In this document: positions 26,070 through 49,300 of the stretch, one piece after another
Numbering within the stretch: the stretch's first letter is position 1
Layout: each line of letters begins with the position of its first letter
DNA from: Elusimicrobiota bacterium
Lineage (GTDB): Bacteria; Elusimicrobiota; Elusimicrobia; F11
Assembly: GCA_044221725.1 (NCBI GenBank)
Contig: JBGAON010000003.1
Span: 448,001-512,000, forward strand
Direction of reading: 5' to 3'
Length of the DNA stretch: 64,000 bases
Program-made: the position numbers and the translations under genes
The notes under the pieces: generated by a model
Databases searched by the model: none
The model's input: only the letters and a program-made list of their open reading frames with translations
What the model was told of the DNA's origin: nothing

Positions 26070-26074
26070 TCCAC

Positions 26075-26205: not shown

Positions 26206-27378
26206 ATATTTATTCTTTTGATGTGTCGCACCGGTTTTTCGCAAGTTAGCTTGGGTATCGACGAGTTGGAGAAAAGCAATTTCAAAGAGCTCCAGGGCCG
26301 GCGTGTTGCGCTGATCACAAATCAGACGGGCATCGACCGGGATGGTGATTCCACTGTTGATCTGTTGTTGCACGCTCCGAAAGTCACACTCGTTTGCATT
26401 CTTACTCCGGAGCACGGATTTCGCGGTGTTGATGAACACGGCAAAGCCATTTCTGATTCGATAGACCCGGTTACGCATCTGCCGGTTTACAGTTTGTACG
26501 GCGATACGACACGGCCCACAGAGAAGATGCTGAAAGGAGTCAACACGGTCGTGTTTGATATCCAAGATGTCGGTACGCGGTTTTATACGTACGTCACCAC
26601 CATGGCCATGGCGATGGAAGAAGCCGCCAAACGAAAGTTGCGATTTGTTGTGTTGGATCGACCGAATCCTGTCCGCGGCGATATTGTCGACGGAGATATT
26701 TTGGACCGCGACATTAAGCGTATGACCGGTTACTATCCAATTCCGGTCCGCCATGGCTTAACGATTGGCGAGCTCGCAAAGTGGTTCAACGAAACGGAGA
26801 AGATCAAATCCGATCTCGTGGTGATTCCAATGAAGCAATGGCCGCGCGATCAATGGTTTGATCAAACGGGTCTGTTGTTTGTTAATCCCTCTCCCAACAT
26901 TCGTTCGACCACCGAAGCGGTTCTCTACTCCGGTATAGGATGTTTTGAGGCGAGCAACATCGCCGTTGGACGCGGCACGGACACGCCGTTCGAAATTTTT
27001 GGAGCACCGTGGATCAAAGGGAAAGCGCTGACGACAATGCTGCGTGAAAAGAATTTCCCTGGCGCGCTGTTTGAACCGGTCACCTTCACACCAGAAAAAG
27101 ATATTTACGCCGGCGAAAAATGCGAAGGGACGCGTATCATTGTAACGGATCGCGAACGGATTCGGCCGTACCGCATTTTTGTGGCCGCGTTTCTGTATCT
27201 GCATGAGATGTTCCCGAAAGATTTTAAACCGGACTGGGAGGAGGTACGCGTCGTCACGGGTTCGAACAAATTAAAAGACGTGGCCGAGAATCGATTGTCC
27301 GTGGACGAATATTTCCGTTCGATCGACGATGCGATACGATTGTTTCGCGAACAAATTTCTGCTTTTTATCTTTACTAA
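26200..27378 (+). CDS. namZ: Exo-beta-N-acetylmuramidase NamZ (DUF1343); start may lie up to 26062
   Basis: TNQTG, PEHG, SLYG, FDIQDVGTRFYTY, LDRPNP, RHGLTIGELA, PSPN and GRGT..PF motifs; N-terminal hydrophobic signal. Confidence 0.9.
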   Translation: MTIFILLMCRTGFSQVSLGIDELEKSNFKELQGRRVALITNQTGIDRDGDSTVDLLLHAPKVTLVCILTPEHGFRGVDEHGKAISDSIDPVTHLPVYSLYGDTTRPTEKMLKGVNTVVFDIQDVGTRFYTYVTTMAMAMEEAAKRKLRFVVLDRPNPVRGDIVDGDILDRDIKRMTGYYPIPVRHGLTIGELAKWFNETEKIKSDLVVIPMKQWPRDQWFDQTGLLFVNPSPNIRSTTEAVLYSGIGCFEASNIAVGRGTDTPFEIFGAPWIKGKALTTMLREKNFPGALFEPVTFTPEKDIYAGEKCEGTRIIVTDRERIRPYRIFVAAFLYLHEMFPKDFKPDWEEVRVVTGSNKLKDVAENRLSVDEYFRSIDDAIRLFREQISAFYLY

Positions 27379-30612: not shown

Positions 30613-31557
30613 CTATTTTGAATTCATTACGAGCCGCAGCACTTCACCGCGGTCGGTCGCTTTGTCCAGCTTGTGGCGAATGTCCACGGCCGGCATGTTC
30701 GTCGCGTCAGAAATCGAATTCACGGCCGCTTGACGACGATCTTCGGCGAGCGTTGAATTCGGGCTGTTCGCGTAAACTTCCACGGTGAGCGGCTTGTTGG
30801 AATTTTCACGAATCACATCGATGGCGCGTGCCCAAAGGCCGTCCATGACCGGACGAAATGTGGCGTTGTCGTCTTGAAACAATCGCTTCGCGGCAAATTC
30901 AACCACGAGTTTTCCTTTCTGGTTGTACATGAGAGCGTCCAATTGGAAAGGTTCGCCCGGGAACGTGTTGGCATTCTCGTGTTCATCGTAGGTTACAAAC
31001 TGGTACGAGTAGAGCGTACCGACCGTTATGTACTGGCCGCGTTCATTAAGCCCGTTCCAATCAATTTGGCGCGGCGGAACGCCTTTGCCTTGAATGAGCT
31101 TTACCACCTCGCCATTTTGATCGGAGACGCGGAATTCCCAGCGTTTCGAAGCTACTTTCGAAAGCCCCGGATAAAACGTGACAAGTGGTGGTTCCGGAAT
31201 GAGCGGCAACGACGGCCGCAACACTTGATTCGAATTCAGCACACCGTAATTTTCAAAGTCTTCTTTGCTTGGGATTGGTTTTGCTTCTTGCAAAACTTTG
31301 TCCGTTTGCGCGGTGCCGCTTTCGATGATGTCTTTGACGTCCAATTCAATCGTCGGCGGTGGTTTCTGAATATCCAGCTGTTCTTTCACTTGCCCTTTCA
31401 CTGTTTCTGAGAGCGGCTCGGATCCCATCGTTTCTTTTTGTCCGCCACCCCCACTGTTCGTGGCCGCGGTGGCCTGAGTCTCTTCTTCGGCGTACGAGGG
31501 CTGAATCACGACAGCCGCGACAAACAGAAAATTCAAAAGAGAATATAAACGTTTCAT
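30613..31557 (-). CDS. Periplasmic protein with a FlgD/CTD-like Ig domain and a degenerate OmpA-C-like domain
   Basis: Signal peptide; WEFRVSDQNGEVVK...IDWNGLNERGQ...Y; C-terminal LF...ATF......I.......LTVEVY....LAEDR pattern without the GHTD motif. Confidence 0.6.
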   Translation of the reverse strand: MKRLYSLLNFLFVAAVVIQPSYAEEETQATAATNSGGGGQKETMGSEPLSETVKGQVKEQLDIQKPPPTIELDVKDIIESGTAQTDKVLQEAKPIPSKEDFENYGVLNSNQVLRPSLPLIPEPPLVTFYPGLSKVASKRWEFRVSDQNGEVVKLIQGKGVPPRQIDWNGLNERGQYITVGTLYSYQFVTYDEHENANTFPGEPFQLDALMYNQKGKLVVEFAAKRLFQDDNATFRPVMDGLWARAIDVIRENSNKPLTVEVYANSPNSTLAEDRRQAAVNSISDATNMPAVDIRHKLDKATDRGEVLRLVMNSK

Positions 31558-31560
31558 AAA

Positions 31561-32871
31561 TTAAACTCCTCTAAACACAAACGTGACCACACCTTCTTGA
31601 ATTTCGTTCGAGCGGCCCGCCGGTAGTCGACTGAAAATCCATTGTTGCAGAGAGCTGATCACCTTTTGATCGAACGTCGGACTTCCCGACGACACTTCGA
31701 CAATGATGCCATCCAAAACATTTCCGTTGGCGTTCACGCGAAAACGCAACGCGACACGGCAATCGATTTCGTAACGTGCAAAAGATTTTTGGACAATCGG
31801 TCGATTCGCAAGAGCACCGGTGATATTGAATCGCCCATCGCTGACCGACTTCATTCCCGCGGGTTGGGACTCACTAACCGTGTTGCGCGGCAGCGTTGAC
31901 ATTTGGGTGCCGGTCCCGCCGAAACCGGAACCGCCGCCGTAACTCCTGCCTCCTCCGCCACTTCCAAATCCGCTTCCGCTCGAATGACCGGAGCCCGTTC
32001 CACTCCCGCTTCCAGCGCCATAACCGTTTCCGCCCGATCCAGCGGCGCCACTTCCGGAACCCGTGGATCCCGCCGGTCCACCGACCGAAGCGCCGCCCAT
32101 CGCCAATCCTCCGCTCGAACCGCCGCCGTGCGACGAACTACTGCCCGAGAAGCCGCCGCTTGATGCGGATCCTTTCGGCGCAAAAGCCTTTGTCTGGAGT
32201 GCCGGCCCGGATCCGGGCCCGCCGCTCAACGAGCGCACGGCTGAACTTGTTTTGTTTCCGGTCTCGACCGGAATCGCGTTCACGTTCACCAATTGATCTT
32301 TCGCGTTCGAGTCGATGATCTTAAACGGCATATCTTTCTGCGCGACTTTGAATTTGTTTTCCTTGAGATTCGGTTCGGACTTTTGGAAATTTCCTTTCGA
32401 AGGCTGAACCAGCACCTGCTGCGTTTGTCCTTTCGAAATATCGAGTTCGTCCTTCTTCGCAAGGCCGTCGAAACCTTTCTTTTGAAACGGTTTGTCCGTC
32501 AAAGCGTCGGGTTTGTTCCAGGCCGGCTTGGCCGGTTCAACGGGAACCGCTGTTTGTTGGCCCATCGCGACTTCGGATTTCGCGCCCGGGCGTTCGCCCC
32601 TCACCAACGATTTCACCTTCGAGAAGAAACTTTGTTTTGGTCCGGTTCCACCGCCGGCCGGCTCGTAGCTCGGGATGTCGGACCGGAAATCCACATTCAC
32701 CAGCATATCACCCATTCCACCATTCCCACTTTCGGGCAGCGACAGCATTCCGCCTTTCCACAGCAACAACGTTGAGTGCACCGCGAGCGCGAATACCAAG
32801 CACGCGAAATCACGGCCCGAGAAATCAAATTTTATGCCGGTGGATGGAATTCCGTTAATGGGTTGCATCAT
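31561..32871 (-). CDS. TonB/TolA-like energy transducer with Gly/Ser-rich linker
   Basis: Single TM with His (FALAVHSTLL), long low-complexity linker, and TonB-C-like end (VALRFRVNANGNV...SSG...FD......LQQWIF...GVVTFVF). Confidence 0.8.
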   Translation of the reverse strand: MMQPINGIPSTGIKFDFSGRDFACLVFALAVHSTLLLWKGGMLSLPESGNGGMGDMLVNVDFRSDIPSYEPAGGGTGPKQSFFSKVKSLVRGERPGAKSEVAMGQQTAVPVEPAKPAWNKPDALTDKPFQKKGFDGLAKKDELDISKGQTQQVLVQPSKGNFQKSEPNLKENKFKVAQKDMPFKIIDSNAKDQLVNVNAIPVETGNKTSSAVRSLSGGPGSGPALQTKAFAPKGSASSGGFSGSSSSHGGGSSGGLAMGGASVGGPAGSTGSGSGAAGSGGNGYGAGSGSGTGSGHSSGSGFGSGGGGRSYGGGSGFGGTGTQMSTLPRNTVSESQPAGMKSVSDGRFNITGALANRPIVQKSFARYEIDCRVALRFRVNANGNVLDGIIVEVSSGSPTFDQKVISSLQQWIFSRLPAGRSNEIQEGVVTFVFRGV

Positions 32872-33295
32872 TGGTTGGCTCCAATTTCCCCGCTCGTTGC
32901 GTGGTGGCAATGGCGACCGCGCGATTTCCGACATACCGGTTGACGGTGCGCAGGAAATTTTCGACGTTTCCGTACGGCAAATTCTTGTCGGCGCGCACGA
33001 TCACAACAATGTTTTCTTTTCTATCGCGCAGCTTTGCAACAAGTGCACGTGGCAAGTCTTTCCATTGAACGATATCCGTGTCGATCGAAATTGAACCATC
33101 GGATCCGAGACTTACGGTAATATTTTGATCTTTGGTTTCTTTGGTCATCGCTTCCGGCAACTCCACCGGAATATTCGGCAAATTCATGATGGGGCTCATC
33201 AACAGAAGAATCACGAGCAATACCAGCGTTACGTCGATCACCGGAATAATGTTGACGCCCGAAATGGCTTCTTCGCTTATGTTGACACGTTTCAC
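32855..33295 (-). CDS. exbD: ExbD/TolR-family protein
   Basis: NIIPVIDVTLVLL (conserved Asp), VELPEA and VRADKNLPY motifs. Confidence 0.9.
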   Translation of the reverse strand: MKRVNISEEAISGVNIIPVIDVTLVLLVILLLMSPIMNLPNIPVELPEAMTKETKDQNITVSLGSDGSISIDTDIVQWKDLPRALVAKLRDRKENIVVIVRADKNLPYGNVENFLRTVNRYVGNRAVAIATTQRAGKLEPTNDATH

Positions 33296-33756
33296 GATGC
33301 GCCATCCTTGTGCGGCACGAGCGACAAACTTACGGCCCCGCTCTGACGCACGAGATCCAAAATGCGGACCACGTTCTGATATTTCACGTCGGGTTGTGAC
33401 GAAATTAAGACCGTTCGGTCTTTTCTACCACCGAGATTTTGCTGCAAAACGCGGAACAATTCGTATTCGGTAGCGATGGCCTGACTATTAACGGTGAATC
33501 CATTGCTTTTAATATCCACGAAGATCGGTTTCTCTGAAATTGTGGAACTGGACTTTGAAGCGACGGCTTGTGCGGCTTGAACCTGAATCATTGATTGAAG
33601 CGCCATCGGAGAAATGACCATCAATATGATCAGCAATACCAAGGTCACGTCCGCCAATGGGACGATGTTGACCTCGTTTAATTCGCCGTCTTCTTGGTTA
33701 GCGGAGCTTTGCACGGATTTCGCTCGGTTTCGGCTGCGCTGGCTTGTCGCCCGCAT
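33292..33756 (-). CDS. exbD: ExbD/TolR-family protein (second copy)
   Basis: EVNIVPLADVTLVLLIILMV (conserved Asp) and VKYQNVVRILD motifs. Confidence 0.88.
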   Translation of the reverse strand: MRATSQRSRNRAKSVQSSANQEDGELNEVNIVPLADVTLVLLIILMVISPMALQSMIQVQAAQAVASKSSSTISEKPIFVDIKSNGFTVNSQAIATEYELFRVLQQNLGGRKDRTVLISSQPDVKYQNVVRILDLVRQSGAVSLSLVPHKDGAS

Positions 33757-34378
33757 CTTCGCCGCCGTAGATTTGAATAATCAGTTCGTGCGCCGCGTTG
33801 TTCAAACGAACACCAATGCCGCGCATCTTGATGGTGAAGTAGTTGTAGAAAAGAGCTGCAGGAACGGCGACGATAATGCCGGCCGCCGTGGAAACAAGCG
33901 CTTCCGATATACCCGCCGCGACGATGTTTGCGCCACCCGATCCCGAACGTCCCAAATCGGCGAACGCTTGCATAATTCCGGTGACGGTTCCCAAAAGGCC
34001 AACAAGAGGCGAGATAAAAGACAGAGTTGAAAAGAGTCCAAGGCGTTTCCGCAGTCTTTCGATTTGGCTTTCTTTCGCGATTTGAACGAGATCTTCGTTA
34101 TCAGCGCGGGATAGATGCGTCGAGCTGATGGCAACCAAGAACGTTTGTGCAAAAACATTGTTCGACTGTGCGCACAGGTTTCGTGCGTCGTGCAAGCGGC
34201 CCGAGGCCACGCTGTTCTTCACGCGGTGCCAAAACTCTTCGCTCCACCCGGTGTGAGCCATGAAAAACCAGAGGCGTTCCAGCAAAAATGTCATCAGCAA
34301 CACCGAGAAGAAAAGAAGTGTTGTGATGATCGCTGGATTTACTTTCAATATTCCCATGAATCCCAATTCTTTTAACAT
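33698..34378 (-). CDS. exbB: MotA/TolQ/ExbB proton-channel protein
   Basis: SPLVGLLGTVTGIMQAF and AGISEALVSTAAGIIVAVPA motifs; GGAGGG SD. Confidence 0.93.
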   Translation of the reverse strand: MLKELGFMGILKVNPAIITTLLFFSVLLMTFLLERLWFFMAHTGWSEEFWHRVKNSVASGRLHDARNLCAQSNNVFAQTFLVAISSTHLSRADNEDLVQIAKESQIERLRKRLGLFSTLSFISPLVGLLGTVTGIMQAFADLGRSGSGGANIVAAGISEALVSTAAGIIVAVPAALFYNYFTIKMRGIGVRLNNAAHELIIQIYGGEDAGDKPAQPKPSEIRAKLR

Positions 34379-34404
34379 GTTGTTCCCTCCAGTTTTTTTC
34401 GAAA

Positions 34405-37386
34405 TTATTTGGCTTCGGATCGCAGGGTCTTCGCGCGATCGATCGCCGCTTGTTTCCAGTCCGGGTTTGAGCTGTTGCTCGCTATGTCTTCGTACACCGA
34501 TATGGAATCATCAACTTTGCCAAGTTCCTGATACAGTTCCGCGAGAGTGACCATCCCCGTCAGTCGCACCTCGTTCGAGCGTGGACCTTTCGCGCGGAGT
34601 TTTTCGTACATCGCGAGTTCTTGGTTCGGCATCTTCATGATCCGGTAAAGTTTTGCTTGAGCGACATACGAAGTGAACGATTCGTCGGCGTCGTCGGGAA
34701 TCATCTGGTAACTCTTTAGCGCCACTTCATAATTTTTCATTTCCTCGTTCGCGGCGCCCATGTCGAGAAGTACCTTGTTCCGTTGGGGATCGTTAGGAAA
34801 GCGTTCCAGGAAGCGTTGTTGCGCGGCGAGGGCTTGGGCCGGTTGATTCATCTTTTTGTAGCAAAGAGGAATGTTAACGAGAGCGTCACGCGCCAATCCA
34901 CCGTTGGGATCGGCTTCGAGCGTGTCGTTAAACGTAATCACCGCTTCGCGATAGTTCTCAACCTGGAAGTAGCTCACGCCCAAACGGAACAGCGCTTGCA
35001 CGCGGTTCGGACTGTCCGGGAAATTTAGCACGAAGTTTTTGTAAGCGGTAACCGCGTTCGGGTATTCTTCGAGAGCGAAGTGCGACTCGGCCATATAATA
35101 ATAGGACTGTGCCGCTTGTTTTGATTCCGGAAATTCTCCAACGAGCTTGCGGAAATATTCAAGCGCTTGTTTGTATTGCTTGTTGTTGAAAGCATCGGCA
35201 CCCGATTGCCAATAAATGTCGGCCGTGAGTTTGCTCTTTGGGAATTTTTCGGTCAAGCTCGCGAGATCACCCGATCCTTTGGCTTCGCGGTAATGCGCCA
35301 TTTGCAAAAGTTCAAGCACGTCCTTTGCTTTCGGATCTTTCGGATAATTGTTCAAGAATTCTTGCAGTCGTTTGGATGCCAATTCGAACTGGCCCTGGTT
35401 GTAATAGCACTGCGCAATTTGAATGCGCGCGTCTTTCACGTTTTCGGATTGCGGATATTTGTCGATCAACAATTGGAATTGTTTGCCGGCCTCGTCGTAT
35501 TTTCCAAGACCGAATTGGGTTTTCGCGATTTCGTACACCGCTTTTGGCGCGAGCGGATGGTTCGAGTAGTTGGTCGCCAGTTTCTGCCAGCGCGCAATTG
35601 CTTCGGTGTAATATTCGAGACGATAGAAGCTTTGCCCGCCCTGAAATAACGCGTCGGGAACCATCGGATCGTCCGGGTAACGGTTCACGAACTCGTCAAA
35701 ATACCCCATCGCCTTGTCGTACTTCTTTTGCGTAAAAAGAACTTGAGCGGTATCCATGAGCACGGATTTCTTAACTTCTTTGCTCTTGAGATTCTCCGCC
35801 ATCGCCAACGCCCGCTCGTGCGCGACACCGGCTTCGTCAAATTGTCCTTTTCGCGCCAACGAAGCGGCGACGCCGAGCATCGCGTAGGCCAGCTTCGGCG
35901 TATCTTTATAATTGTCGACGATCAGTTGATAGTTGCGTTGCGCGGCATCAAATTGATTGAGTGCGTAGTAGGCTTCGGCCACCCACAAATAAGTTTCGGC
36001 CTGCCAACGCGTGGGGCTTACGGGCGCTACTTTTAATTGCGAGTTGAGAGACGTCACAATCTCCGCCAGCTGGTTGTTTTGGAAATAAGACGTCCCCATC
36101 AAGTAGAGTGCTTTTTCCGAATGGATTGAATTTCCAAACTGATCCAAAACGATTTGATACTCGGCGTTCGCTTCCACGAATTTCTTCATGCGTTGCAGGC
36201 AGATTCCCTTGAGAAGGTGGGTTTTGGCAGCCAGTTCTCCCCACGGATATTCTTTGAGAAATTTCTCCGCGCGCGCAACGGCCGTATCGTCTTGTTTCTG
36301 CTCGGCCATGCACCAAACAATCTTGTATTGCGAATCCATGCGCAGTTCGTGCGCTTCAGAAATTTGGCTGAAGAACGAAATCGCTTTCCCGTAGTCGCCG
36401 AGGCGCAGCGCCATTTCTCCGAGCATGTAGATGCCGTACGGCAAATTTACATCGTCTTCGAACCCTCTGACGAGTTCTTCCCACTTAAGACCGGCTTCCT
36501 GAAAACGGCCCAGATGAAATTGAATGCACGCCATCCGGTGCAACGCGTACGGGCGAAGTGGGCTCAATTTGAATTTGTCGTAGACCTTGCGAAAGCTGTC
36601 ATAAGCCAAATTCAGTTCGTTTACTTTGTAATAGGCTTCGGCCATCTGGAGTTGGGCTTTGTCGGCCCAGAATCCGGTCGGATCTTCCTCATAAACGTCC
36701 TTAAACATTTGGGACGCCGCAATTGTTTGTCCAAGCATGCGCAAAACGACGCCATGATAATAACGGGTCCCCAAATCGTCTTTAATCAGTGAAAACATAT
36801 CGAGCGCGTCTTGGAGTCGGTTGCGCTCCATGTACAATAGGCCCAGCGGTGTGACCGCGGCCGGATTTGATTTGTACTTCGGGTACGATTGCAGAAGTTC
36901 GACCAGCATGTTTTCGGCTTTTTCATGGCTGTTTAAAGCGATCAGCGATAACGCCCAGCCAAGCAATGCTTCGGATCGCAAAATCTTCGGTGCTTTGTTT
37001 TTGACGACCGTGAAGTGATCGATCGCGTTCAAATACTTTTTCATGTTGAATTCGCAATGACCAAGTCGCAACTCCGCGTTCATCGCTTCGTAGGTGCCGG
37101 AGTATTTTTTCGTAACAACTGTATATTCGTCAGCGGCTTCCGGATATTTCTTCAGGGAAAATTTTATTTCGCCGAGCGCGAAACGCGCTTGTGCCGCGAG
37201 ACGGTGGCCCGGGAATGTTTTTAAGAAGCCTTCGTATTCTTGCGCAGCGCTATCGAGGCGACCATTTTGGAAAGCAAGAGAGGCGATTTTGAATTGTTGG
37301 AGAGGATCAACCGAAACTGCAAAAGATGGTACGGCGCTATTTGCCACGAGGCAAACGATGCCTAAGAGCTGAGCGAGTTGTTTCAT
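34405..37386 (-). CDS. Secreted multi-TPR protein (CpoB/BamD-like TPR pairs along its whole length)
   Basis: Signal peptide; more than 20 TPR-like units with A..f..l...YP....a..A patterns. Confidence 0.88.
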   Translation of the reverse strand: MKQLAQLLGIVCLVANSAVPSFAVSVDPLQQFKIASLAFQNGRLDSAAQEYEGFLKTFPGHRLAAQARFALGEIKFSLKKYPEAADEYTVVTKKYSGTYEAMNAELRLGHCEFNMKKYLNAIDHFTVVKNKAPKILRSEALLGWALSLIALNSHEKAENMLVELLQSYPKYKSNPAAVTPLGLLYMERNRLQDALDMFSLIKDDLGTRYYHGVVLRMLGQTIAASQMFKDVYEEDPTGFWADKAQLQMAEAYYKVNELNLAYDSFRKVYDKFKLSPLRPYALHRMACIQFHLGRFQEAGLKWEELVRGFEDDVNLPYGIYMLGEMALRLGDYGKAISFFSQISEAHELRMDSQYKIVWCMAEQKQDDTAVARAEKFLKEYPWGELAAKTHLLKGICLQRMKKFVEANAEYQIVLDQFGNSIHSEKALYLMGTSYFQNNQLAEIVTSLNSQLKVAPVSPTRWQAETYLWVAEAYYALNQFDAAQRNYQLIVDNYKDTPKLAYAMLGVAASLARKGQFDEAGVAHERALAMAENLKSKEVKKSVLMDTAQVLFTQKKYDKAMGYFDEFVNRYPDDPMVPDALFQGGQSFYRLEYYTEAIARWQKLATNYSNHPLAPKAVYEIAKTQFGLGKYDEAGKQFQLLIDKYPQSENVKDARIQIAQCYYNQGQFELASKRLQEFLNNYPKDPKAKDVLELLQMAHYREAKGSGDLASLTEKFPKSKLTADIYWQSGADAFNNKQYKQALEYFRKLVGEFPESKQAAQSYYYMAESHFALEEYPNAVTAYKNFVLNFPDSPNRVQALFRLGVSYFQVENYREAVITFNDTLEADPNGGLARDALVNIPLCYKKMNQPAQALAAQQRFLERFPNDPQRNKVLLDMGAANEEMKNYEVALKSYQMIPDDADESFTSYVAQAKLYRIMKMPNQELAMYEKLRAKGPRSNEVRLTGMVTLAELYQELGKVDDSISVYEDIASNSSNPDWKQAAIDRAKTLRSEAK

Positions 37387-37426
37387 GTTTTCTGTCCCCT
37401 CTTCTTCAATACTGCGACAGTACGGC

Positions 37427-38908
37427 TTACTTCGTAGGTTCGGTTACCTCGGGCTGCGCTTCCGCGGGTTGCGTCGCTTCAGCGGGCGCGGCTTCTGGTT
37501 GCGTTCCTACACTGCTATTGTCTTGCTTGGCCGGTGTTTCGACCGGAGCTGAAATTGGTGTTGCGCTCATCGCTTTTTCAGCGGCCGCATCTTCTTTGGT
37601 TTTTGCGGTCAGTTCTGTTTCACGCGCGCCGTTCAGTTGAAGGCTCATATCGATCACTTCTTTGCGATCGTGATCTGGCAACGCGAGTTTCAGGTCGCCG
37701 TCGTTCTCCCATGTCTTTCCGTTCTTGTAATTGACTTGGAAGTGATAGGCATACATTCCGTCAACAACCGGTTCGCCGATCGCGTTTTTCGCGTCCCAAA
37801 CAATTTTCTCTGGCGGACGCAAGTCGCCTTCCAGGCGGCGCACTTCTTTGCCTTCGGCGTTGTTGATGGAGAGACTCCAACGAGCGACCGTTTGGGCTGG
37901 CACGTCGGTCTTAAACGCTACCTGGTTTTCAAAACCACTCAACGGATACACCGCACGACCCTCTTTCATTGGAGGTTCTATGCCCGTTTTATAAATGTTG
38001 TGCCATGCCCACGTGATGGACACTTTATTAAAGGCTCCAAGATCGGTATCGCTAAACGCATAGTCAATTCTGAACTTTTTGATATTCGCTCCTACACCAA
38101 GAGTGTAACTGCGATTCGCGTTGTAGCCAGTCCTTAACGAAAAAAATCTGTTCACGGCCCATTCGGCACCGGCGGCGTACTGGTTATCTTCATGACTTAC
38201 TCTGCTCATGTCGAAGGTCAGCGTGAGTCGATTTCGGAAAACGTCCGTGGCCGCTCCAAATCGGGTCACCGGGCGAAATACATCTTCTTCGGTTTGCAGT
38301 TTGATGCCCGGCTCGTTGAAATTCGCGAACATCGCGCCAACGCTCAAAAACCGAAACGGTTTGTACATGAAGCCCGCGTCCATCGCGAGCGTGTTGCCAG
38401 AAAGTCCACCCACCTTTTGTTGAATGAATTTCGCGTTCACGCCCGCGGAAATACGCTGCGTGAGCTTGTGCGCATACGAGGCCAGCACCGCATTGTTGCT
38501 CAAAGCCCCGTTCGAATCGGTTTCATTGTTGAAATTGTCGCGCAACGAGTATCCGTTCGAGAGCAACATTGCATCGGACAACGCCAATGCACCCCATTTA
38601 TCGCCCAGGGGATTGGCTGTCGCAAAATAGTTGTAGCTCGAATCCAAATAAAGGGGAGCGTGCATCAGCATCAGTTGGTGTTCGTCCATATACGCTAGAC
38701 CGGCGGGATTGAAGTAAGGGGCGGACGCGTCATCGGCCAAACCCGTGAAAGCTCCGCCCATCGCCAACGAACGAGCACCCGCACCAATGTTGAAAAGGTC
38801 GGAGGCTTGGCCATAGGTTGCGGCCGCGTTTAGAGAGCTTAGATGGCTGGCTAATGTCAGCACAATCAAGCTTGCTTTTAGCACTGTTTTTGGCGTTAGG
38901 GATTTCAT
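37427..38908 (-). CDS. PorV/PorQ-like (FadL/UPF0164-type) beta-barrel fused to a C-terminal FlgD/CTD-like domain
   Basis: IGAGARSLAMGGAFTGLADDASAPYFNPAGL hatch motif, amphipathic strands and IDYAF, then W.L.I....G..VR...IVWDAKNAIGEPVVDGMY and a Pro/Ala/Glu tail. Start is ATG 38908 or GTG 38917. Confidence 0.8.
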   Translation of the reverse strand: MKSLTPKTVLKASLIVLTLASHLSSLNAAATYGQASDLFNIGAGARSLAMGGAFTGLADDASAPYFNPAGLAYMDEHQLMLMHAPLYLDSSYNYFATANPLGDKWGALALSDAMLLSNGYSLRDNFNNETDSNGALSNNAVLASYAHKLTQRISAGVNAKFIQQKVGGLSGNTLAMDAGFMYKPFRFLSVGAMFANFNEPGIKLQTEEDVFRPVTRFGAATDVFRNRLTLTFDMSRVSHEDNQYAAGAEWAVNRFFSLRTGYNANRSYTLGVGANIKKFRIDYAFSDTDLGAFNKVSITWAWHNIYKTGIEPPMKEGRAVYPLSGFENQVAFKTDVPAQTVARWSLSINNAEGKEVRRLEGDLRPPEKIVWDAKNAIGEPVVDGMYAYHFQVNYKNGKTWENDGDLKLALPDHDRKEVIDMSLQLNGARETELTAKTKEDAAAEKAMSATPISAPVETPAKQDNSSVGTQPEAAPAEATQPAEAQPEVTEPTK

Positions 38909-38920
38909 TGCGTTCACCTA

Positions 38921-41900
38921 TTATTTCGCCACCAAAATCTTCGTTTTCATCCTTTGACCGGTGGCACCGACTTTAACGACCACTACATATCCTCCATTTG
39001 CAACGGTCGTGCCGTCATCGTTAATACCGCGCCAAATCACACGGTTATCCGTGCGTGCTTCGCCACCTTGCTGACCAGCATCAATTGTCTGGTGCCAAAC
39101 TTTTTGACCAAACAAGTCATAGATGTCCACGTCCACGCTGGACGCCGATGCCAACGGATACTGAATCGTTATGAAGTTGTCCCCGTTCGAACTCTTCGGA
39201 TTAAACGGACTCGGGTATCCGACGAGCTTGTCCGATAGTTGATAGGTAAGAATGTCGAGTGTGTGCGGCCCACCGTTCGTAACCAACTCACTTACTTTGT
39301 TCACACAGGTCGGATCGACATTCGGGTAGCACACGTCGGAATACCAACGGAAATCGTATGTCTTTGTGGTCGAGAAGCCTGTTGCACCGCTGCTCGGGTT
39401 GTAGGTCTGATACGGGCCACCATCAAGGCTGTAATAGGTGGACACAACACCACCGGCGCTCACCTGCAAACCCGTGAGATCGATAAACCAAGGCGTGTTC
39501 ACGGGGATGCGATTTCCGCCCAAGGTCAACGCACGTCCCGGGCCACCGTTGATACCGAGAATGTTCACCTTAAATTCTTTCGCGAATCCACGATTCGGAC
39601 GATCCAAATCAAGAATGCGAACCGTGATGAGCCCGTTCGCGTTCGGCAAGGCGCTGAAGGTCACTTTCAGTTCGCCGTTCGCATCGGTAAGCGCCACGAG
39701 TTCGTTGCTTTCGCTGTTCATCCTCAACTGACCAGGAATGTCCGCCGATAGCGAAACCTTCTGGTTTGGAATGAGGTTTCCGAACGTGTCCTTGAAGGTC
39801 AGCGTCTCGTCGTCACTCGTTCCGGCCAAAAACTGAATCGGGTCTTTAACGTCAACGGTGACGAGTGCGCCCGGATTGATTTTGATGGCGGCTCCCGAAA
39901 AATAGTATTGCTGAGTCGGAACCGGTGGTGGGTCAAAAACCGTGGTGTTGTCGGCCAAGCGCAAATAGATCGTTTCAGCGCGATTGTATGTGGCGGACAC
40001 CGTGATTTTTCCGTTCACGACGTTCACGAGGTTTGGCACGAACGTGCCGCCCGCTGGAAGTCCCGACACCGACACAAACGCTTCGAGCGGAAGGCCCGTG
40101 CGATTCATGTTTTTGATTTCGGTTCCGGTGTCGGAATCGATCGCTTGGATCGTAAAGTTAAAAAGTTTGTTCACTTCGCTTTCCGCCGGAATATCGCGGA
40201 ACTGATAGGTGACCGCGCGCGGAATAAAACTGATCACATTGCTCACGCTTTCGTTGTCTCCGGTCAAATCTTTCACGCGCAAACGAATGCCTTCCGCAAT
40301 CGTGTACCGTTGATTTGTAATGGTCACGTTGCCCGCGACAAGGTTGGCTGAAGTGACATCCAATGTTCCGGTCGCTTTCGACCCGTCCACTTGCAGCGCT
40401 TCAATCGTGATGGGGCCAAAGGCCGGAACCACCGCTCCAGCACTGTTGCGCAACGAAATGGTCATGCTGAAGGCTTGGCCGGTAAACTGTGTGGCTGGCA
40501 CAGCGATATCGAAGAAAGTTCCGATGACAGGAACGTCGACTTTTTGCGATACGATCGTTCCGTTGTTGTCGTCGCGAACGATGACTGGAATCGTGCCTGC
40601 TTTATTGAATGTAATGGCGGTCGCAGTTTGACCGCCCGCCAGCGGAGCATCCTGCGGGACTGGCGCATTTAAGAATGCGAGCGCGTCCGTCGATTCAAAA
40701 TGGATTTTCCCACCGTTGAACGAATCGACGGTGTTCGCGAATTGGTCGGTTCCTTTCACTTGGAACACCACCGACAGCTTTCGGTCTTGCTGATTTGGCG
40801 TGCCAGTTTTTCCGGTCGGGTTTGCCGTTACCCCCGGCGTGTGAGTCTCGCCGGGCGCGATGATAATGAGTTTTTTGTAGGAATCCGGACTCAATGTGAT
40901 TGCGTTGCTGTTCCGAGGAACAATTGTCCATCCCGCCAAATTAAGATTCGATGCTTTCAGTACGATCGCTTCGGCTTTTGTGTAAGCGACGTCGATCGCG
41001 CAAATACCGTTCACGAGGCTCGCGCTTGAGACGGACAACGTTCCGTCTGCCGTCGGAAAAAGAAGTGATGTCGCTTCCAATCCGACCGTGTGGTTGTAAA
41101 GTGGGCTTTTGATCAGCGTGTCGGTGCTTCGGTCGCGCAGTTCGATGCGTGCACGGAATGTGCTCGGTGGGCCTACGATACCGGTGGCCGGGACAGAGAC
41201 GGTGTATTTTAGGCCGCTCGGTTGAACATCGATAAGGTTTGAGAACGCGATACGACCGAAGTTGTCACGGACTTTGATTTTAATTCCCTCTACATACTGG
41301 TAGTTCAGATCATTAATTACGACGACGCCGTTGTTCGTCACAAACTGGCGTTCGCTTCCATCGGGTGTGAACTGCCCTGTTGCTGGCGTACCGTCGGGCA
41401 ACACCGCGCTCAGGAAGACCGTTTGGCTGTATCCGTTCACCGGAATTCCATTCATCTGGAGCGAAATGGTAACAGCACCGAAATTTGAGCCCGCGACCGC
41501 TGTCGCCGGAGATTGAATGTTGTAGGTCGGGCCCGGAACGACGTGGATCGTCACTTGTCCGAACGTCTTCGTGAGATCGTTCTGGTCAAGAGCTTTAAGC
41601 GTGTAAAAGCCTTCGCTACCGAACAGGACGCTGCGCGTGTGGGTTCCGGTTTGGATCGTGCGAGGCGTGGGGCCGTTCTGCGTGTTATTGGGCGGTAAAT
41701 AAATTGTGTTTGTTGGTGACGAAACGAACAGAACATCACCGCCGGAAAATTGCACCGGGTTGTAATAGTTATCGACGGAGAGAATGGTCACGGTGTTTGC
41801 CACGCTTACCATTTGATCGGATGGCGGGAACCCCGCTTTCTTTCCGCCGGTCGCTTCGTTTCCCGGGTCCGGCAATTCGCCGGGCGCGATAATTTGCAAG

Positions 41901-44791
41901 CGCGAGTACGGTCCTGCGAGCCCTTGAATTGTGCTCGAGCTGGCCGTCACACCGCCCGCGGTAATATCCGTTGCGGTCAGTGTGTGAATCACTGCGGCTT
42001 TCAAAACAAGCGTTGTACTGAATTCGCCGAGCGCCAGATCTCCCTGCGCGGGGCTAAATTGCGCGTAGGAATCGCTCGCGAAGGCGACTTTCTGCGACGA
42101 GATTGTTGTTAATTGGTTGAAATACTGATCGCAAGCGACGGCGCGAACCGTGATGGCCGTTCCAACCGAGCGTGGAGCATTTGCGCCAGTTTTTCCCCAT
42201 GTTGTTCCGGGCGCCGCTACCTCGTCGGGACCCAGCAGCAACAATTTTTTATATCCGAGCGAATTCGGAAGAACCTTAAATGAATTGCTCGTGCTGGTTG
42301 TGCCGCCCCATTGCATGACGATTTTGACGGCGTTGTTCGCCGCGAAGCAGGTGATCGGACCATTGTAGATACCGCCGGACATCGATACGGTCGCTGGAGA
42401 CATCGTGCCCACGCCGGTTGTTGCCGACAAATTAATGGAATTGTTGAAATTGTTGATGATCTGATTGAACTGATCTTCTGCTTGAATCAAAACGTTGAAC
42501 GGAACGCCCGCCTCTTTGTCGGTATTGCTAGCGAGAGTGAAACGGAAGTGATCGACGTTTCCCGGACCTACCGGAATGGAAACACTCTGGAAAAGATTGG
42601 CGTTTCCGGCATCTTCGACGCGCACTGCTGAATTTTCGCCGAGCGACACGCTAACCGTGCGGTTGCTGGCGGCCATTGAAACGGATTGGCCCAACGTAAT
42701 TCCGCTGATGAAACTTGCAGCGTTGCTTGGCGTGATAGAGAAGCGCGTATTGGCGTACGGCGGATTCTGTAGCGGATTCCAGTATTGATCGGTGAGATAC
42801 GCGGTCATGTTGAACGCGATACCAGCGCCTTGCGTTGACGGCACTCCTTCTTTTCCATTTGCGAAAAATGAACCGGGGCGTAATGTTTCGCCGGGCGCTT
42901 CAAACGCGACACGATTGTAGGCGCCTGCGGAGACAGTTACCGTCGAGCTCAAGAAATCTTGCGGGGAAAAATTTGTGGTGGCGCGAAATTGCTTGTTGAG
43001 GCCCGCGGTACGCATGCTCACGCGGAAAGACGTGTCAAACGGCGGTGTCTGATACGTGAGTTCACCCCCGATCGGGAACGTGACGGTCGGATCGGCTGGG
43101 TGCGTCGCCGTGATATATGAGCTCGGAACCAAGCTCGACAACGTAATAGGAGTTCCCGTAATCGCAGGACCGGTAACCACATTCCAGTGCGCATCGGTCA
43201 AGCGAGCTTCGACAACCAACTGGTCGCCGGCCACGATGGTCGGCGGCGTGCCGCTGTTGCCGGGATACGTTCCAGGCGTAAACGTTTCTCCGACGAGCAC
43301 GCCGGGTTTCCCCAAAATTGTCATATGGACTTTGCTGAGGGCACCGGTCCGGACTTCGAATTGGTTGCTGTACGTTCCGACGCCAAATTGATCCTCAAAG
43401 TGCAAATCGACAACTTGGCTGCGTTTCGTAACGTTCAAATTAACGGTCGCGATACCGGCGACGAAGTTCACGACGTTGTCCGGAACGATTGTGGACGGGT
43501 TTGTATCCGCCCAAAGAACATTTTCTTGCACCGGCGGGCCGCTGATGCGCGCCGACAATTTTGCGCCCGGAAGAGCACCGTAGAGACTGGTGAGCAGAAT
43601 TCCACCGGACCGCGCTTCGATTTGAATCGTGATGACATCATCGGTTGTGAAGATCTGCCCCGGATTTGGTTGCACCGTAAACGCGTATGTGTTCGTCGCA
43701 CCGGGTGCCACCGGAACCACGGATTGATCCGCTTGGGCGGACTGTCCATTTGGGGTGGCTGTAATCGTACGCGTTCCGTTCGTGTTAAAAACAAAGCGGT
43801 TCGGTGCCGGTTGGCCACCGGCGATTTGTAGCGGCGGCGTTGTGAGACTTTGGGTGGGCGGTAAATAACTCGGCGCCACGGTGTCCGTCGGTTCCGACGA
43901 TGTGAATCCCATGCTGAGACTGACCGCTGAATAAATAGGATTGTAGAAAGCATCGACCGGCCAAATGGTGACAAGTCCTACCGGAACCGCGGCGACCTGA
44001 GTTCCAACCGTTCCACTTTTACCGATGCCGGGCGTCAGCGTTTCTCCTGGAAAAAGCATTGTGACTTTGGAATAAGCCCCCGGCGTTAAATTGAACAATG
44101 GACTCGTGTACGTTGGCGCGGGCACAGGGCCCGGCACGTTGAAACCGGTCAATCCGGAAATTGTCAGTGAAACTTTGTTGTTCATATCGCCGGCTTTTGT
44201 TGTGACGATGGCGGTGGCGATGCCATTTCCCGTCACGAAAGCGTTGCCGTCCACCGGTGTCAAAATACCCAAAGCGCTGCTGTCGACGATTTGAACCGGG
44301 TCCTCGAAATAAGAAACGAAGATTCCGTTCGCATCGAGCGGCGTGATCTGAATCGTGTAAGAAGTGTTTGCCGTAATCGACGGAATGGTGGGCGTGATCT
44401 GAAAGGTTGTCGGATACCGTTGCAGCGAGGCAGAAACCGTCGTGAAAATTGAGGGATCGTTTTTGTTTGTCACCGTCAGGTTTACATTGCCGGGAGCCTG
44501 ATGAAAGCGAATCGTGAAAATAAGTTTTCCGGTCGCATCCACTTTGTATTCGTTGGGCCCCACTTGCACACCGTTTCCGACGAAGATATCGCACGAAGCC
44601 AACGCGCCCGACGTTTGCAAAAATACGTTGTCGAAAAGCGCGGGTGAGGAAACGATTTGCAATTGATAGTCGCGCCCTTGAACGAGATTGAGCGGACGCC
44701 CATCGGTGCGCGTGATCGTGTAACCGGCGAACGCCGAGCTGACCGCCGACAGGAGGATTCCTCCAACAAAAGATAGAAGTTTGCGGTTCAT
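38921..44791 (-). CDS. Giant secreted Ig-like repeat protein with T9SS/FlgD-like C-terminal domain
   Basis: Signal peptide; repeated D.y.N beta-sandwich units and PGE..PG...GK.G repeats; C-terminal YPSPFNP...DIYDLFGQKV...WRGINDDGTTVANGGY...KILVAK. Confidence 0.82.
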   Translation of the reverse strand: MNRKLLSFVGGILLSAVSSAFAGYTITRTDGRPLNLVQGRDYQLQIVSSPALFDNVFLQTSGALASCDIFVGNGVQVGPNEYKVDATGKLIFTIRFHQAPGNVNLTVTNKNDPSIFTTVSASLQRYPTTFQITPTIPSITANTSYTIQITPLDANGIFVSYFEDPVQIVDSSALGILTPVDGNAFVTGNGIATAIVTTKAGDMNNKVSLTISGLTGFNVPGPVPAPTYTSPLFNLTPGAYSKVTMLFPGETLTPGIGKSGTVGTQVAAVPVGLVTIWPVDAFYNPIYSAVSLSMGFTSSEPTDTVAPSYLPPTQSLTTPPLQIAGGQPAPNRFVFNTNGTRTITATPNGQSAQADQSVVPVAPGATNTYAFTVQPNPGQIFTTDDVITIQIEARSGGILLTSLYGALPGAKLSARISGPPVQENVLWADTNPSTIVPDNVVNFVAGIATVNLNVTKRSQVVDLHFEDQFGVGTYSNQFEVRTGALSKVHMTILGKPGVLVGETFTPGTYPGNSGTPPTIVAGDQLVVEARLTDAHWNVVTGPAITGTPITLSSLVPSSYITATHPADPTVTFPIGGELTYQTPPFDTSFRVSMRTAGLNKQFRATTNFSPQDFLSSTVTVSAGAYNRVAFEAPGETLRPGSFFANGKEGVPSTQGAGIAFNMTAYLTDQYWNPLQNPPYANTRFSITPSNAASFISGITLGQSVSMAASNRTVSVSLGENSAVRVEDAGNANLFQSVSIPVGPGNVDHFRFTLASNTDKEAGVPFNVLIQAEDQFNQIINNFNNSINLSATTGVGTMSPATVSMSGGIYNGPITCFAANNAVKIVMQWGGTTSTSNSFKVLPNSLGYKKLLLLGPDEVAAPGTTWGKTGANAPRSVGTAITVRAVACDQYFNQLTTISSQKVAFASDSYAQFSPAQGDLALGEFSTTLVLKAAVIHTLTATDITAGGVTASSSTIQGLAGPYSRLQIIAPGELPDPGNEATGGKKAGFPPSDQMVSVANTVTILSVDNYYNPVQFSGGDVLFVSSPTNTIYLPPNNTQNGPTPRTIQTGTHTRSVLFGSEGFYTLKALDQNDLTKTFGQVTIHVVPGPTYNIQSPATAVAGSNFGAVTISLQMNGIPVNGYSQTVFLSAVLPDGTPATGQFTPDGSERQFVTNNGVVVINDLNYQYVEGIKIKVRDNFGRIAFSNLIDVQPSGLKYTVSVPATGIVGPPSTFRARIELRDRSTDTLIKSPLYNHTVGLEATSLLFPTADGTLSVSSASLVNGICAIDVAYTKAEAIVLKASNLNLAGWTIVPRNSNAITLSPDSYKKLIIIAPGETHTPGVTANPTGKTGTPNQQDRKLSVVFQVKGTDQFANTVDSFNGGKIHFESTDALAFLNAPVPQDAPLAGGQTATAITFNKAGTIPVIVRDDNNGTIVSQKVDVPVIGTFFDIAVPATQFTGQAFSMTISLRNSAGAVVPAFGPITIEALQVDGSKATGTLDVTSANLVAGNVTITNQRYTIAEGIRLRVKDLTGDNESVSNVISFIPRAVTYQFRDIPAESEVNKLFNFTIQAIDSDTGTEIKNMNRTGLPLEAFVSVSGLPAGGTFVPNLVNVVNGKITVSATYNRAETIYLRLADNTTVFDPPPVPTQQYYFSGAAIKINPGALVTVDVKDPIQFLAGTSDDETLTFKDTFGNLIPNQKVSLSADIPGQLRMNSESNELVALTDANGELKVTFSALPNANGLITVRILDLDRPNRGFAKEFKVNILGINGGPGRALTLGGNRIPVNTPWFIDLTGLQVSAGGVVSTYYSLDGGPYQTYNPSSGATGFSTTKTYDFRWYSDVCYPNVDPTCVNKVSELVTNGGPHTLDILTYQLSDKLVGYPSPFNPKSSNGDNFITIQYPLASASSVDVDIYDLFGQKVWHQTIDAGQQGGEARTDNRVIWRGINDDGTTVANGGYVVVVKVGATGQRMKTKILVAK

Positions 44792-45156
44792 GGCCGCACC
44801 TCCACCGCTTCTTCCACATATCTTTGGGTGTCGGGATTTTTGTCATCCGTCAAAACGCAAACCGTGTAAGAACCGATGAACGCAGCGTGCAACGTAATTT
44901 TTCCAATGCCGTCACGCAGGGTAACGCGGTTCGGTTCACCAACACCACGACGCCGCAATTCAACAAGGACTGTTTCGTTCGTCTTGAATTTTTTTCCGTC
45001 TTTGAGCGCGGTTATTTCCACCGGAAGATCGGATTTAAGTGAGATCGATTTCGGAACCGCAACTTTAAAGCTTTGAATTTCGCTGGCGTGGATCGAGAGA
45101 ATTCCAAAAAAAACGACGGCCGCGCACGTAGCTATAATTTTTGTGAATCGTTTCAT
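44788..45156 (-). CDS. Small secreted Ig-like protein, first gene of the operon
   Basis: AGGAGG SD; signal peptide MKRFTKIIATCAAVVFFGILSIHA; beta-rich; ATGA overlap with the giant gene. Confidence 0.7.
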   Translation of the reverse strand: MKRFTKIIATCAAVVFFGILSIHASEIQSFKVAVPKSISLKSDLPVEITALKDGKKFKTNETVLVELRRRGVGEPNRVTLRDGIGKITLHAAFIGSYTVCVLTDDKNPDTQRYVEEAVEVRP

Positions 45157-45252
45157 CGTTGCGTCCTCCTTGCACATTTCTCTCGATCGTTCGAGTAAAT
45201 CCCTGAAAACCTTAAATCACAATGTGTTTTTGGTCACAGGTTTGCCTTCCAA

Positions 45253-45274
45253 ATGTCACCGAAACTTGTGACAT
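45253..45274. promoter_or_regulatory. Inverted repeat ATGTCAC-N8-GTGACAT at the predicted transcription start
   Basis: Perfect 7-bp arms at 45253-45259 and 45268-45274. Confidence 0.5.
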
Positions 45275-45283
45275 AAGCTCGTG

Positions 45284-45299
45284 TGCAATGTTCATGCCA
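45284..45299 (-). promoter_or_regulatory. Sigma-54 (RpoN) -24/-12 promoter
   Basis: Minus strand TGGCATGAACATTGCA gives GG-N10-GC, one mismatch from TGGCACG-N4-TTGCW; intergenic and oriented toward the operon. Confidence 0.75.
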
Positions 45300-48086: not shown

Positions 48087-49193
48087 TTAGCGCAGGTGAT
48101 CCCAATAGGATTCTTCTTTCATTGGAAGGATAAGAATTACCCGGTCGTTTGGAACGTCGAAGACCTCAGAAATTTTTTCCTCTTTTCGTTCGGGGCCAAA
48201 CCACGTGGAAAGCGTCAGCATCTGAGTGTTGCCGAGTTCTCCGAACGGCGTGATCGCGTAGTCGAGACTAAATTGGCGAAATTGAAGTCCGAGCCCGCCG
48301 GTCAGGCCGCTCACATTGGCGAGATTTCCCCGGTTTGTTTCGCTGGTCTGGTTGTTCGTGATACTCGTGGCGAGCTGCGCCAAATAACCAGCGCGCAACA
48401 TCACGTTGTTCGTGGCAAAAAGCTGCGTGCCAAGCGCTAATTCCGTTTGATGCGAATACGGCTTGTGATGGACGTCCGCGAGCAGAACGATCGGGTTCGA
48501 AAGACGATACGCGGTGCCAACCGACAAGGTCAGCGGCAACGCGTATTGTTCATCCACAAATTTCATTTGCGGCCCCAAATTTCGCACGCTCATTCCAAGC
48601 GACATCCGGTTAATTGGCGTCGCCGATAAGAATCCCAAGTCAACCGCGAATCCATCCGCTTCATGGCCCGCTAACTCCTGTCGAATCACTTTTAACTGCG
48701 TTCCCATCTGCATGCGCCCAAAGTTGTGCGCGTAGGCTGCCCCCAGCGCAAGATCAGAGGCCGAAAGCGAACCGGTTTTGTTGCGCTGATCATCGTAGCG
48801 GTCCTGGTCCGTGTAGGACAAATGAATCAGATCGAGACCCCAAGAGCTGGCGCCGGATCGGCTGGGAATAATGGCGCCCAAATGGTCGAGGTTCGTTTCG
48901 GAAAATTGATCTTGATGGGAAAGGGAAAGGCCCAGGGTTGGGTGCGGAAGCTGAGTTGCGCCGCGAAGATTGACAATCCCGGCCGGGTTCCAGTTCAGCG
49001 CGTTGATACCGTGGGCGAGGGCGGTGTAAGCCTGTCCCAATCCTGCCGGCTCCGCTCCAATCGGAATTTTTAGAAAATCGGCGCTCGTATCCACCCCGGC
49101 ACGAGCCACCGACAAAAGAGGAAAGACAGGCGCCAAAAAAATCGCCGCCCGCGCAACCCGCCAGAATCTATGCCGAACCGAATCCCGTTTCAT
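48087..49193 (-). CDS. PorV/PorQ-like beta-barrel (second copy)
   Basis: ADFLKIPIGAEPAGLGQAYTAL......WNPAG, FAVDLG, VRNLG, LRAGY and LDYA.TPFGELG motifs. Confidence 0.82.
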   Translation of the reverse strand: MKRDSVRHRFWRVARAAIFLAPVFPLLSVARAGVDTSADFLKIPIGAEPAGLGQAYTALAHGINALNWNPAGIVNLRGATQLPHPTLGLSLSHQDQFSETNLDHLGAIIPSRSGASSWGLDLIHLSYTDQDRYDDQRNKTGSLSASDLALGAAYAHNFGRMQMGTQLKVIRQELAGHEADGFAVDLGFLSATPINRMSLGMSVRNLGPQMKFVDEQYALPLTLSVGTAYRLSNPIVLLADVHHKPYSHQTELALGTQLFATNNVMLRAGYLAQLATSITNNQTSETNRGNLANVSGLTGGLGLQFRQFSLDYAITPFGELGNTQMLTLSTWFGPERKEEKISEVFDVPNDRVILILPMKEESYWDHLR

Positions 49194-49248
49194 CTTGAAC
49201 GCCCGCCAAGCCGTGGACGGTGTTACAAGAATGTTACGTGCTCTTCGA

Positions 49249-49274
49249 TTAAAACCGCTTTAACTTCAGATTAA
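49249..49274. promoter_or_regulatory. Triple TTAA-N7 phased repeat upstream of the barrel gene
   Basis: TTAA at 49249, 49260 and 49271; also TGTTAC-N5-TGTTAC at 49221-49237. Confidence 0.4.
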
Positions 49275-49300
49275 GTTTTAGAGAAGATTCGCAAACGGGG

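Follow-up and report, generated by a model that had tools for sequence, protein, structure and literature searches.

A conserved operon of Elusimicrobiota with a Ton-type motor module, a large surface protein and a PorV-family carrier

Why would a proton-driven motor of the ExbB/ExbD/TonB kind share an operon with a large surface protein and an outer-membrane barrel that resembles the cargo carriers of type IX secretion? The question is raised by nine open reading frames (ORFs; g1 to g9) on the minus strand of a 64-kb window (the whole stretch of DNA analyzed), which run from 45156 (or 45177) down to 30613 and belong to the 2.82 Mb, 93.9% complete genome of an uncultured member of the Elusimicrobiota. 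Type IX secretion (T9SS) is described as a system of Bacteroidota and the wider Fibrobacterota-Chlorobiota-Bacteroidota group that needs the GldLM motor. We find that the operon is conserved, and that its motor genes belong to an accessory Ton-type module, not to a GldLM replacement. A proton-driven motor, a large surface protein and its own carrier within one operon point to an undescribed application of force at the cell surface. Tentatively, and at somewhat below even probability, we read the module as a private source of force, which in this lineage would pull on one carrier-cargo pair by way of an N-terminal strand of g9 and a tetratricopeptide repeat (TPR) scaffold.

The conserved unit is smaller than the operon. 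Among 201 Elusimicrobiota genomes, a profile of g9, the marker family of the module, matched 70, about 34 of them with a true g9 and the rest with Ig-OmpA proteins; the profile can miss divergent copies, and related genomes are not independent. Six co-oriented genes, TPR-ExbB-ExbD-ExbD-TonB-g9, recur in 38 of the 40 loci taken around the stronger matches, where g9 is present by construction (L029 has no motor genes and L047 one called ExbD). The original prediction took motor, barrel and cargo as one syntenic unit; this holds in nine of the 40 loci, but the other 31 have no barrel, and the unit is the six-gene module. The loci with cargo and barrel fall into three or more separate parts of the tree, and cargo or barrel is linked to the module in four gene orders. 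Full-length orthologues of the surface protein g2 occur in 9 of the 201 genomes, each with a type A operon, and all 12 type A loci with upstream room in a further homologue scan carry cargo and barrel (four repeat earlier loci). Type B copies, which are barrel-less, add a TPR plus OmpA/MotB-like gene (a label by appearance), and type C copies add an Ig-OmpA rod. Genes for rods of 1010-1080 aa, with FlgD-like Ig domains and an OmpA end, lie between TPR and ExbB in seven loci (L039, L044, L045, L050, L052, L053, L054). These genes were considered as PorV fusions and rejected as such, Pfam and our barrel profile showing Ig-OmpA rods and no barrel, and the seven loci are excluded from the barrel count. 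Similar proteins are common in Spirochaetota.

In a tree that holds Elusimicrobiota sequences only and no AglR, the 48 module ExbBs group together (97/99) and are separate from 15 Tol-type rows. A FastTree of 61 TPRs likewise sets those of the module, as a single clade, off from four Tol-associated relatives. Type A is monophyletic in both trees (99/89 for ExbB, 100 for TPR) and, in the ExbB tree, is sister to type B plus L024. On the TPR tree the barrel label takes four changes, three of them forced by supported branches, two barrel-linked rows being long branches. From these four changes and the four gene orders, the link between module and barrel is either ancestral or recurrent. We also inspected the 80 metagenome loci nearest by ExbB (5 without an ExbB call, many contigs short). 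A TPR gene is present in 49 of the 57 with upstream room, and matches to TonB-dependent transporters (TBDTs), TolB or SprA are zero in all 80. Together with the separate ExbB clade, this supports the earlier view that the motor is not an ordinary ExbBD serving TBDTs. Close homologues carry the name Elusimicrobia; of the records that the homologue scan returned, 14 are labeled Elusimicrobiota or 'bacterium', and one is an unrelated TPR from Poribacteria. A Desantisbacteria relative of the ExbB has no TPR upstream; on a Desantisbacteria-related contig (L130), a module-like ExbB-ExbD pair is split from the second ExbD by what appears to be a restriction-modification-like insert. As a lead only, a g9-like cluster in the Atlas is commonest in Krumholzibacteriota.

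The operon is compact, with gaps of 3, 40, 26 and 3 nt and overlaps, counted from the first start codons, of 4, 59, 4 and 80 nt. It is flanked by ispA, 231 nt upstream, and an aminotransferase gene, 123 nt downstream; promoter and terminator scans of both ends detected none. Pfam and NCBIfam searches and the ORF coordinates confirm the nine co-oriented genes and their labels as originally proposed, and also the absence of TBDT, TolB and Pal from the operon. The start of g1 (44788..45156) is most likely at 45156, behind AGGAGG, rather than at the first ATG (45177), so that 45178-45299 is upstream sequence. The product is small and secreted (122 aa, or 129 aa from the ATG at 45177) and, by appearance only, a single Ig-like domain; it has no Pfam or NCBIfam match, and phmmer found no homologue among the fetched loci. 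It is the least conserved member of the operon, and of the 11 distinct type A loci inspected, 8 have a secreted ORF of 108-297 aa at the corresponding position.

The cargo, g2 (38921..44791), is a 1956-aa surface protein rich in Thr, Gly and Val, with a signal peptide, repeats bearing a PGE...GK motif and an export signal resembling the T9SS C-terminal domain (CTD). The C-terminus resembles FlgD_ig/CHU_C domains weakly, under the Pfam cut-off, and matches our own CTD profile at E 9e-24, a profile whose seeds include g2 itself. No catalytic domain was detected in g2, its repeat recurs in giant ORFs of 4,000-19,000 aa, and the protein is a probable adhesin. The next gene, g3 (37427..38917), encodes a PorV-family outer-membrane barrel (about residues 1-303) followed by a tail with a CTD/FlgD-like Ig domain (340-400), a conserved strand and a low-complexity end. 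It scores 125 bits against NCBIfam PorV_fam (cut-off 90), falls under the PorV equivalog cut-off, and gave no match in a PDB sequence search. The tail is kept in all type A barrels inspected, is predicted from barrel topology to be periplasmic, and its Ig domain is related to that of g9 (E 1.7e-8).

The remaining genes make up the six-gene module. The scaffold g4 (34405..37386) is a 993-aa TPR protein with a signal peptide, predicted periplasmic, whose best-scoring match is CpoB/YbgF and which stays under the cut-offs for PorW/SprE (84 vs 250) and PorE (33 vs 600). The ExbB/TolQ-type subunit g5 (33698..34378) matches PF01618 above the Pfam cut-off, and its T132, E160 and T165 align with E. coli TolQ T145, E173 and T178, which we take to be proton-path residues. 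Both ExbDs, g6 (33292..33756) and g7 (32855..33295), match PF02472 above cut-off and keep the transmembrane (TM) Asp, as the original prediction stated. This Asp is present in every readable first ExbD (45 of 47 loci, two being unreadable by the pattern), but N, T or A stands in its position in 6 of 45 second ExbDs (L016, L017, L028, L030, L044, L051), a count in which the pattern misread L049. An Asp invariant in one ExbD and sometimes lost in the other fits a single motor with a mixed ExbD pair. The TonB-like transducer g8 (31561..32934) starts with one TM helix and an adjoining beta-strand motif; a long linker rich in Gly and Ser leads to its TonB-C domain, which is above the Pfam cut-off and about 8 residues shorter in its family. 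Its TM His, His53, is conserved in at least 90% of 44 homologues, likewise as predicted. The g8 profile matches 14 TonB structures and zero TolA.

The last gene, g9 (30613..31557), encodes a signal peptide, a TonB-box-like strand (about 48-55), an extended linker, a CTD-like Ig domain (121-207) and a degenerate OmpA-like domain (208-314). It does not look like a lipoprotein. In the predicted structure (mean pLDDT, the predicted local distance difference test, 83.5; the N-terminal 110 residues of low confidence), the Ig domain is closest to the PorU CTD (Z 9.2, root-mean-square deviation (rmsd) 2.4, 83 residues aligned) and then to FlgD (Z 8.5), and the OmpA-like domain is recognized at Z 13.8 (rmsd 2.9, 114 aligned). 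Judged by what we take to be the canonical wall-binding residues, the binding site is degenerate, with the Arg in 21 of 44 members and the loop before it shortened in about half. The strand after the signal peptide, which we liken to TonB boxes, has the consensus L/P-x-E/D/S-V-V/T-I/V-K/T-G, in which one position is I/V throughout the 44 members and the second position after it is G in 31 of them. A profile of this motif selects the N-terminal box-like strand in one of the four TBDTs of the same genome (p 0.048). The Ig subfamily of g9 recurs in the g3 tail and in the Ig-OmpA rods inserted in the seven other loci.

How, then, would g2 leave the cell? The original prediction found no SprA, PorU or GldKLMN in the window. 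For the genome as a whole this stands for the GldLM-type motor, which was not found, but not for SprA, a homologue of which lies at C4:344418-349817 (1799 aa). It matches TIGR04189 at E 1.6e-31, under the cut-off, and its profile matches F. johnsoniae SprA (6h3i) at E 4e-25. A PDB search with the single sequence gave no match. A structure model of residues 620-1799 (the last 1180) contains about 28 long strands and finds four SprA structures at E 1e-25 or better, all other entries being no better than 4e-5; for 8gl8 the Foldseek E-value is 8e-33. A complete canonical T9SS elsewhere is thus present only in part as an explanation of the cargo: SprA provides an export pore, but GldL and GldM were not found. 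GldM has no match in this genome (94% complete) or in any of the 201, and no control genome passed the cut-off either. GldL gave noise alone (E 0.03, in a 1617-aa frame of the genome). GldN and the PorU peptidase (Peptidase_C25) have no match in the genome, which are weak negatives, the control genomes being silent too. The GldK match, far under the cut-off and in an unrelated cluster, is a 362-aa protein, presumably an FGE-sulfatase domain protein. In most of 20 loci inspected (L090-L109, together with L013 here, C4:342138-349817), the SprA-like gene is divergent from two genes of about 360 aa resembling, by appearance, lptF and lptG.

The carrier, too, is one of many. With g3 as query, at least 22 PorV-like barrels were found in the genome (27 matches with a barrel profile), and 26 proteins end in a CTD-like domain by our own profile. 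A CTD-type protein lies within 300 bp of 18 of the 22 barrels, so a private carrier for each cargo is the rule in this genome and g2-g3 is one case of it. The barrel proposed as dedicated counts as cognate to g2, but the arrangement is general in this genome. What sets g2-g3 apart is that it is the single cargo-barrel pair adjoining a motor. Barrel tails across the genome differ (none, TPR, LysM-like or Ig). Two further barrel-cargo pairs lie in the window at 48087-51148 and 59571-63991, and CTD-bearing giants of 13,689 and 8,766 aa are encoded at C3:407319-448388 and C5:215703-242003. A second TPR-ExbB-ExbD-ExbD-TonB-g9 operon, at C3:282291-289222, has a canonical TonB-C and neither barrel nor cargo; it is followed (L001, C3:282291-290001) by a gene whose 260-aa product contains TPRs and ends like OmpA/MotB, and which five other loci also keep. 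Apart from the operon, the genome holds four TBDTs, two MotAB pairs and a separate Tol system (tolQRA-like, C4:453405-455239; pal-cpoB-tolB, C5:317200-319849).

These parts suggest the following sequence of events. The cargo g2 would cross the inner membrane by Sec and exit through the SprA-like pore, its CTD being caught by the cognate barrel g3, as homology suggests and as for the other cargo-barrel pairs of the genome. Because no PorU was found, g2 would probably be retained on g3. The ExbB5-ExbD1/ExbD2 motor, presumed active from its conserved residues, would then use the proton gradient to reel in g8, whose TonB-C may grip the N-terminal strand of g9, a contact suggested by the motif. From there, g9 and the TPR scaffold could transmit the pull to the Ig tail of g3 and so extract the loaded carrier from SprA, or else shift or retract it within the outer membrane. 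The order motor, TonB-C, g9 with TPR, g3 tail, g2 is read from the Ig subfamily shared by g9, the g3 tail and the rods. Homology and gene linkage are what is observed in this chain, and we infer each of its contacts from them. For this lineage, "export, display or movement of a giant adhesin", as first proposed, is our best guess. In Flavobacterium, the step that needs energy is the freeing of the carrier-substrate complex from SprA (PMC10994853), and periplasmic C-terminal tails hold the carriers on a moving track (PMC12635249). The g3 protein has no cysteine, so any grip on its tail must differ from that in Flavobacterium.

Several observations weigh against this private-motor reading. The other 17 cargo-barrel pairs of the genome, including those with cargo of 3457 and 7987 aa, have no adjacent motor; most module loci lack a barrel, as given above, and L204 and L205, from genomes in which a module was not found, show barrels with the same Ig tail. 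Among metagenome loci with a whole TPR gene and upstream room, 3 of 21 have a called barrel, to which L110 adds cargo plus a broken barrel frame. The g9 motif profile missed three of the four TBDTs of its own genome, and the g9 strand in the window itself deviates from the family consensus. It does so jointly with TonB-C in the family of the window's operon, for which shared descent alone may be the cause. A TonB-box-like strand in the barrel tail was considered and rejected, the motif profile being significant in 0 of 18 motor-linked tails.

Since the conserved unit is the six-gene core (38/40 loci), a Tol-like envelope module is a natural alternative, which we judge unlikely though deserving of real weight. 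TonB-C would pull g9 off or onto the cell wall and so tether or remodel the outer membrane, as TolA does on TolB-Pal, the barrel-cargo pairs and Ig-OmpA rods being optional clients or neighbors. The OmpA-like fold of g9, the OmpA-type genes added in type B and type C copies and the CpoB/YbgF score of the TPR all agree with it. So do four other loci (L070, L071, L072, L074), in which a gene for a related TPR protein (about 920 aa) lies upstream of ExbB/TolQ; two of the four are part of a tol cluster with tolB. However, the genome already has its separate Tol system, g9 seems not to be a lipoprotein and its wall-binding site is degenerate, the C-terminal domain of g8 is of TonB rather than TolA type, and the fixed g2-g3 link is left unexplained. 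The same four loci also have, upstream of ExbB/TolQ, a 480-aa protein of no Pfam family with a barrel-like end; the g9 N-terminus shows no homology to these 480-aa proteins.

The module might alternatively be the general motor of a GldLM-less T9SS, extracting all loaded carriers from SprA with the TPR protein in place of SprE. The SprA homologue, the missing GldM match in 201 genomes (no control genome matched), the SprA-like gene in all 34 genomes with a counted module and a weak resemblance of the TPR to PorW/SprE in 25 of 25 members would favor it. But the SprA-like gene is found in 177 of the 201 genomes (57/59 in family f2, 42/63 in f12), and about 143 of these 177 are without a module by the g9 profile. 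Five near-complete small genomes retain SprA and 2-13 PorV-family barrels; they have a single MotA/ExbB gene and lack a 1000-aa TPR, and that gene is Tol-type in both small genomes examined. Most of these SprA-positive genomes likewise have one MotA/ExbB gene, Tol-type in the loci inspected; a single gene of the ExbB family leaves no place for a hidden module, even if the g9 profile misses copies. Nor does any module locus contain a SprA gene. A published survey describes a Bacteroidetes group with Sov and PorV and without PorKLMN (PMC7323717). The module is thus not the general motor of the T9SS-like system, a role we hold to be quite improbable, and the earlier idea that a Ton/Agl-type motor drives export does not extend to export in general, SprA and barrels persisting in many genomes without the module. 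There is an even slimmer chance that we are dealing with an ordinary ExbBD-TonB serving the four TBDTs, its neighbors being incidental. The two module TonBs are the only matches to the family TonB profile in the genome, the C3 copy has a canonical TonB-C, and the one module genome of family f2 is also its one TBDT genome. Set against this are the absence of TBDT matches from the 80 nearest ExbB loci (many short), the 38 of 63 f12 genomes that carry TBDTs without a module, four module genomes without a TBDT match (G110, G198, G128, G192) and the fixed TPR and g9, which it leaves unexplained. Moonlighting of the C3 copy for TBDTs would be compatible with a private force module.

In comparison with known systems, the plan of the operon is most like that of the myxobacterial Agl-Glt machinery, with parts from T9SS. 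From Bacteroidota T9SS and gliding it shares the SprA homologue, PorV-family carriers, CTD-like cargo, a carrier with a C-terminal tail and a TPR scaffold. It differs in having no GldL, GldM, GldN, true GldK or PorU found in the genome, one barrel per cargo rather than a shared PorV, a tail without cysteine and hence no disulfide grip, and a motor of the ExbBD/TonB kind that is dispensable for keeping SprA. Agl-Glt and its 'core complex' (aglRQS with gltC, D, E and G; PMC3169522, PMC11761067) likewise combine one TolQ-like with two TolR-like subunits and add a TonB-like transducer, a pillar of TPRs about 1000 aa long and outer-membrane barrels displaying an adhesin; the beta-strand partner of the TonB-CTD is GltF in the published model and would be g9 here. 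However, membership of the parts in Agl/Glt is not borne out. The g8 protein has no FHA domain, only about 40 residues precede its TM helix, and it scores 19 bits against myxo_SS_tail (cut-off 40); tonB_Cterm is found in 44 of 44 members and GltG in 1 of 44 (E 0.001), and the one GltG match in the genome spans model positions 12-150 only. GltC is weak in 11 of 25 TPRs, GltE is absent among the 25 families listed, the barrel is PorV-like rather than GltABH, and the operon has no cytoplasmic platform genes. One TolQ-like with two TolR-like subunits is not diagnostic of Agl-Glt, other Ton operons having two ExbDs as well, and the likeness is one of plan, the ExbB tree holding no AglR. With Ton and Tol-Pal the operon has in common 5:2 motor subunits with conserved polar residues, the TM His, the TonB-C fold, a TonB-box-like target, an OmpA-like domain and CpoB-like TPRs. 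Unlike in Ton, a soluble Ig-OmpA protein bears the box-like strand instead of a transporter plug, and no TBDT, TolB or Pal is linked. The operon therefore belongs neither to Agl-Glt (no FHA-bearing GltG), nor to canonical T9SS (no GldLM), Tol-Pal or TBDT-linked Ton.

No description of the operon was found in the literature searched, which lay outside supplements and subscription papers, and it is apparently undescribed. The pair 'T9SS' and 'Elusimicrobiota' led to one hot-spring metagenome paper. The accessible text of a review on TolA/TonB evolution (PMC12204202), a preprint on magnetotactic Elusimicrobiota and a giant-gene preprint (10.1101/2023.11.21.568195) makes no mention of it. With SprA and many private carriers retained across a phylum, and GldM without a match, one may ask what drives export there, if anything does. 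If true, a Ton-type motor acting on a soluble Ig-OmpA protein, and perhaps thereby on an adhesin carrier, would show 5:2 motors in a new role. The operon would also offer an approach to the Agl-Glt 'core complex' and to the motility of flagellum-less magnetotactic Elusimicrobiota.

It is also conceivable, though we consider it unlikely, that this is a third kind of bacterial gliding machine, in which a Ton/Agl-type motor moves the T9SS-exported adhesin g2 on its private carrier g3. Such a machine would combine a motor plan known from myxobacteria with an adhesin plan known from Bacteroidota. It could account for the movement of Ca. Obscuribacterium magneticum, a magnetotactic, flagellum-less relative that has the whole operon (L075) with a TPR 71% identical. 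Motility in these bacteria is stated to be unresolved (bioRxiv 10.1101/2022.07.08.499144). Further points for gliding are that no flagellar rod gene was found in the present genome, whose bearer is apparently non-flagellated, and that hardly any small-genome member of f2 and f12 has the module. Against it, track and polarity genes are missing from the operon, module copies mostly come without an adhesin, and motility has other candidates in type IV pili and MotAB-FliG clusters. A cluster at C3:209236-267724 (L004, L005) brings together motA-motB, a pair of giant ORFs of 8021 and 7987 aa that may be one broken gene, a PorV-TPR barrel, coiled-coil genes and a TPR protein resembling FliG, and is a second candidate motor-cargo link in the genome; another motAB cluster lies at C5:183464-186635. 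Elsewhere in the window, positions 20194-27378 hold an ordinary peptidoglycan recycling cluster (GH3, SIS-domain etherase-like, AnmK, sodium-solute symporter and NamZ).

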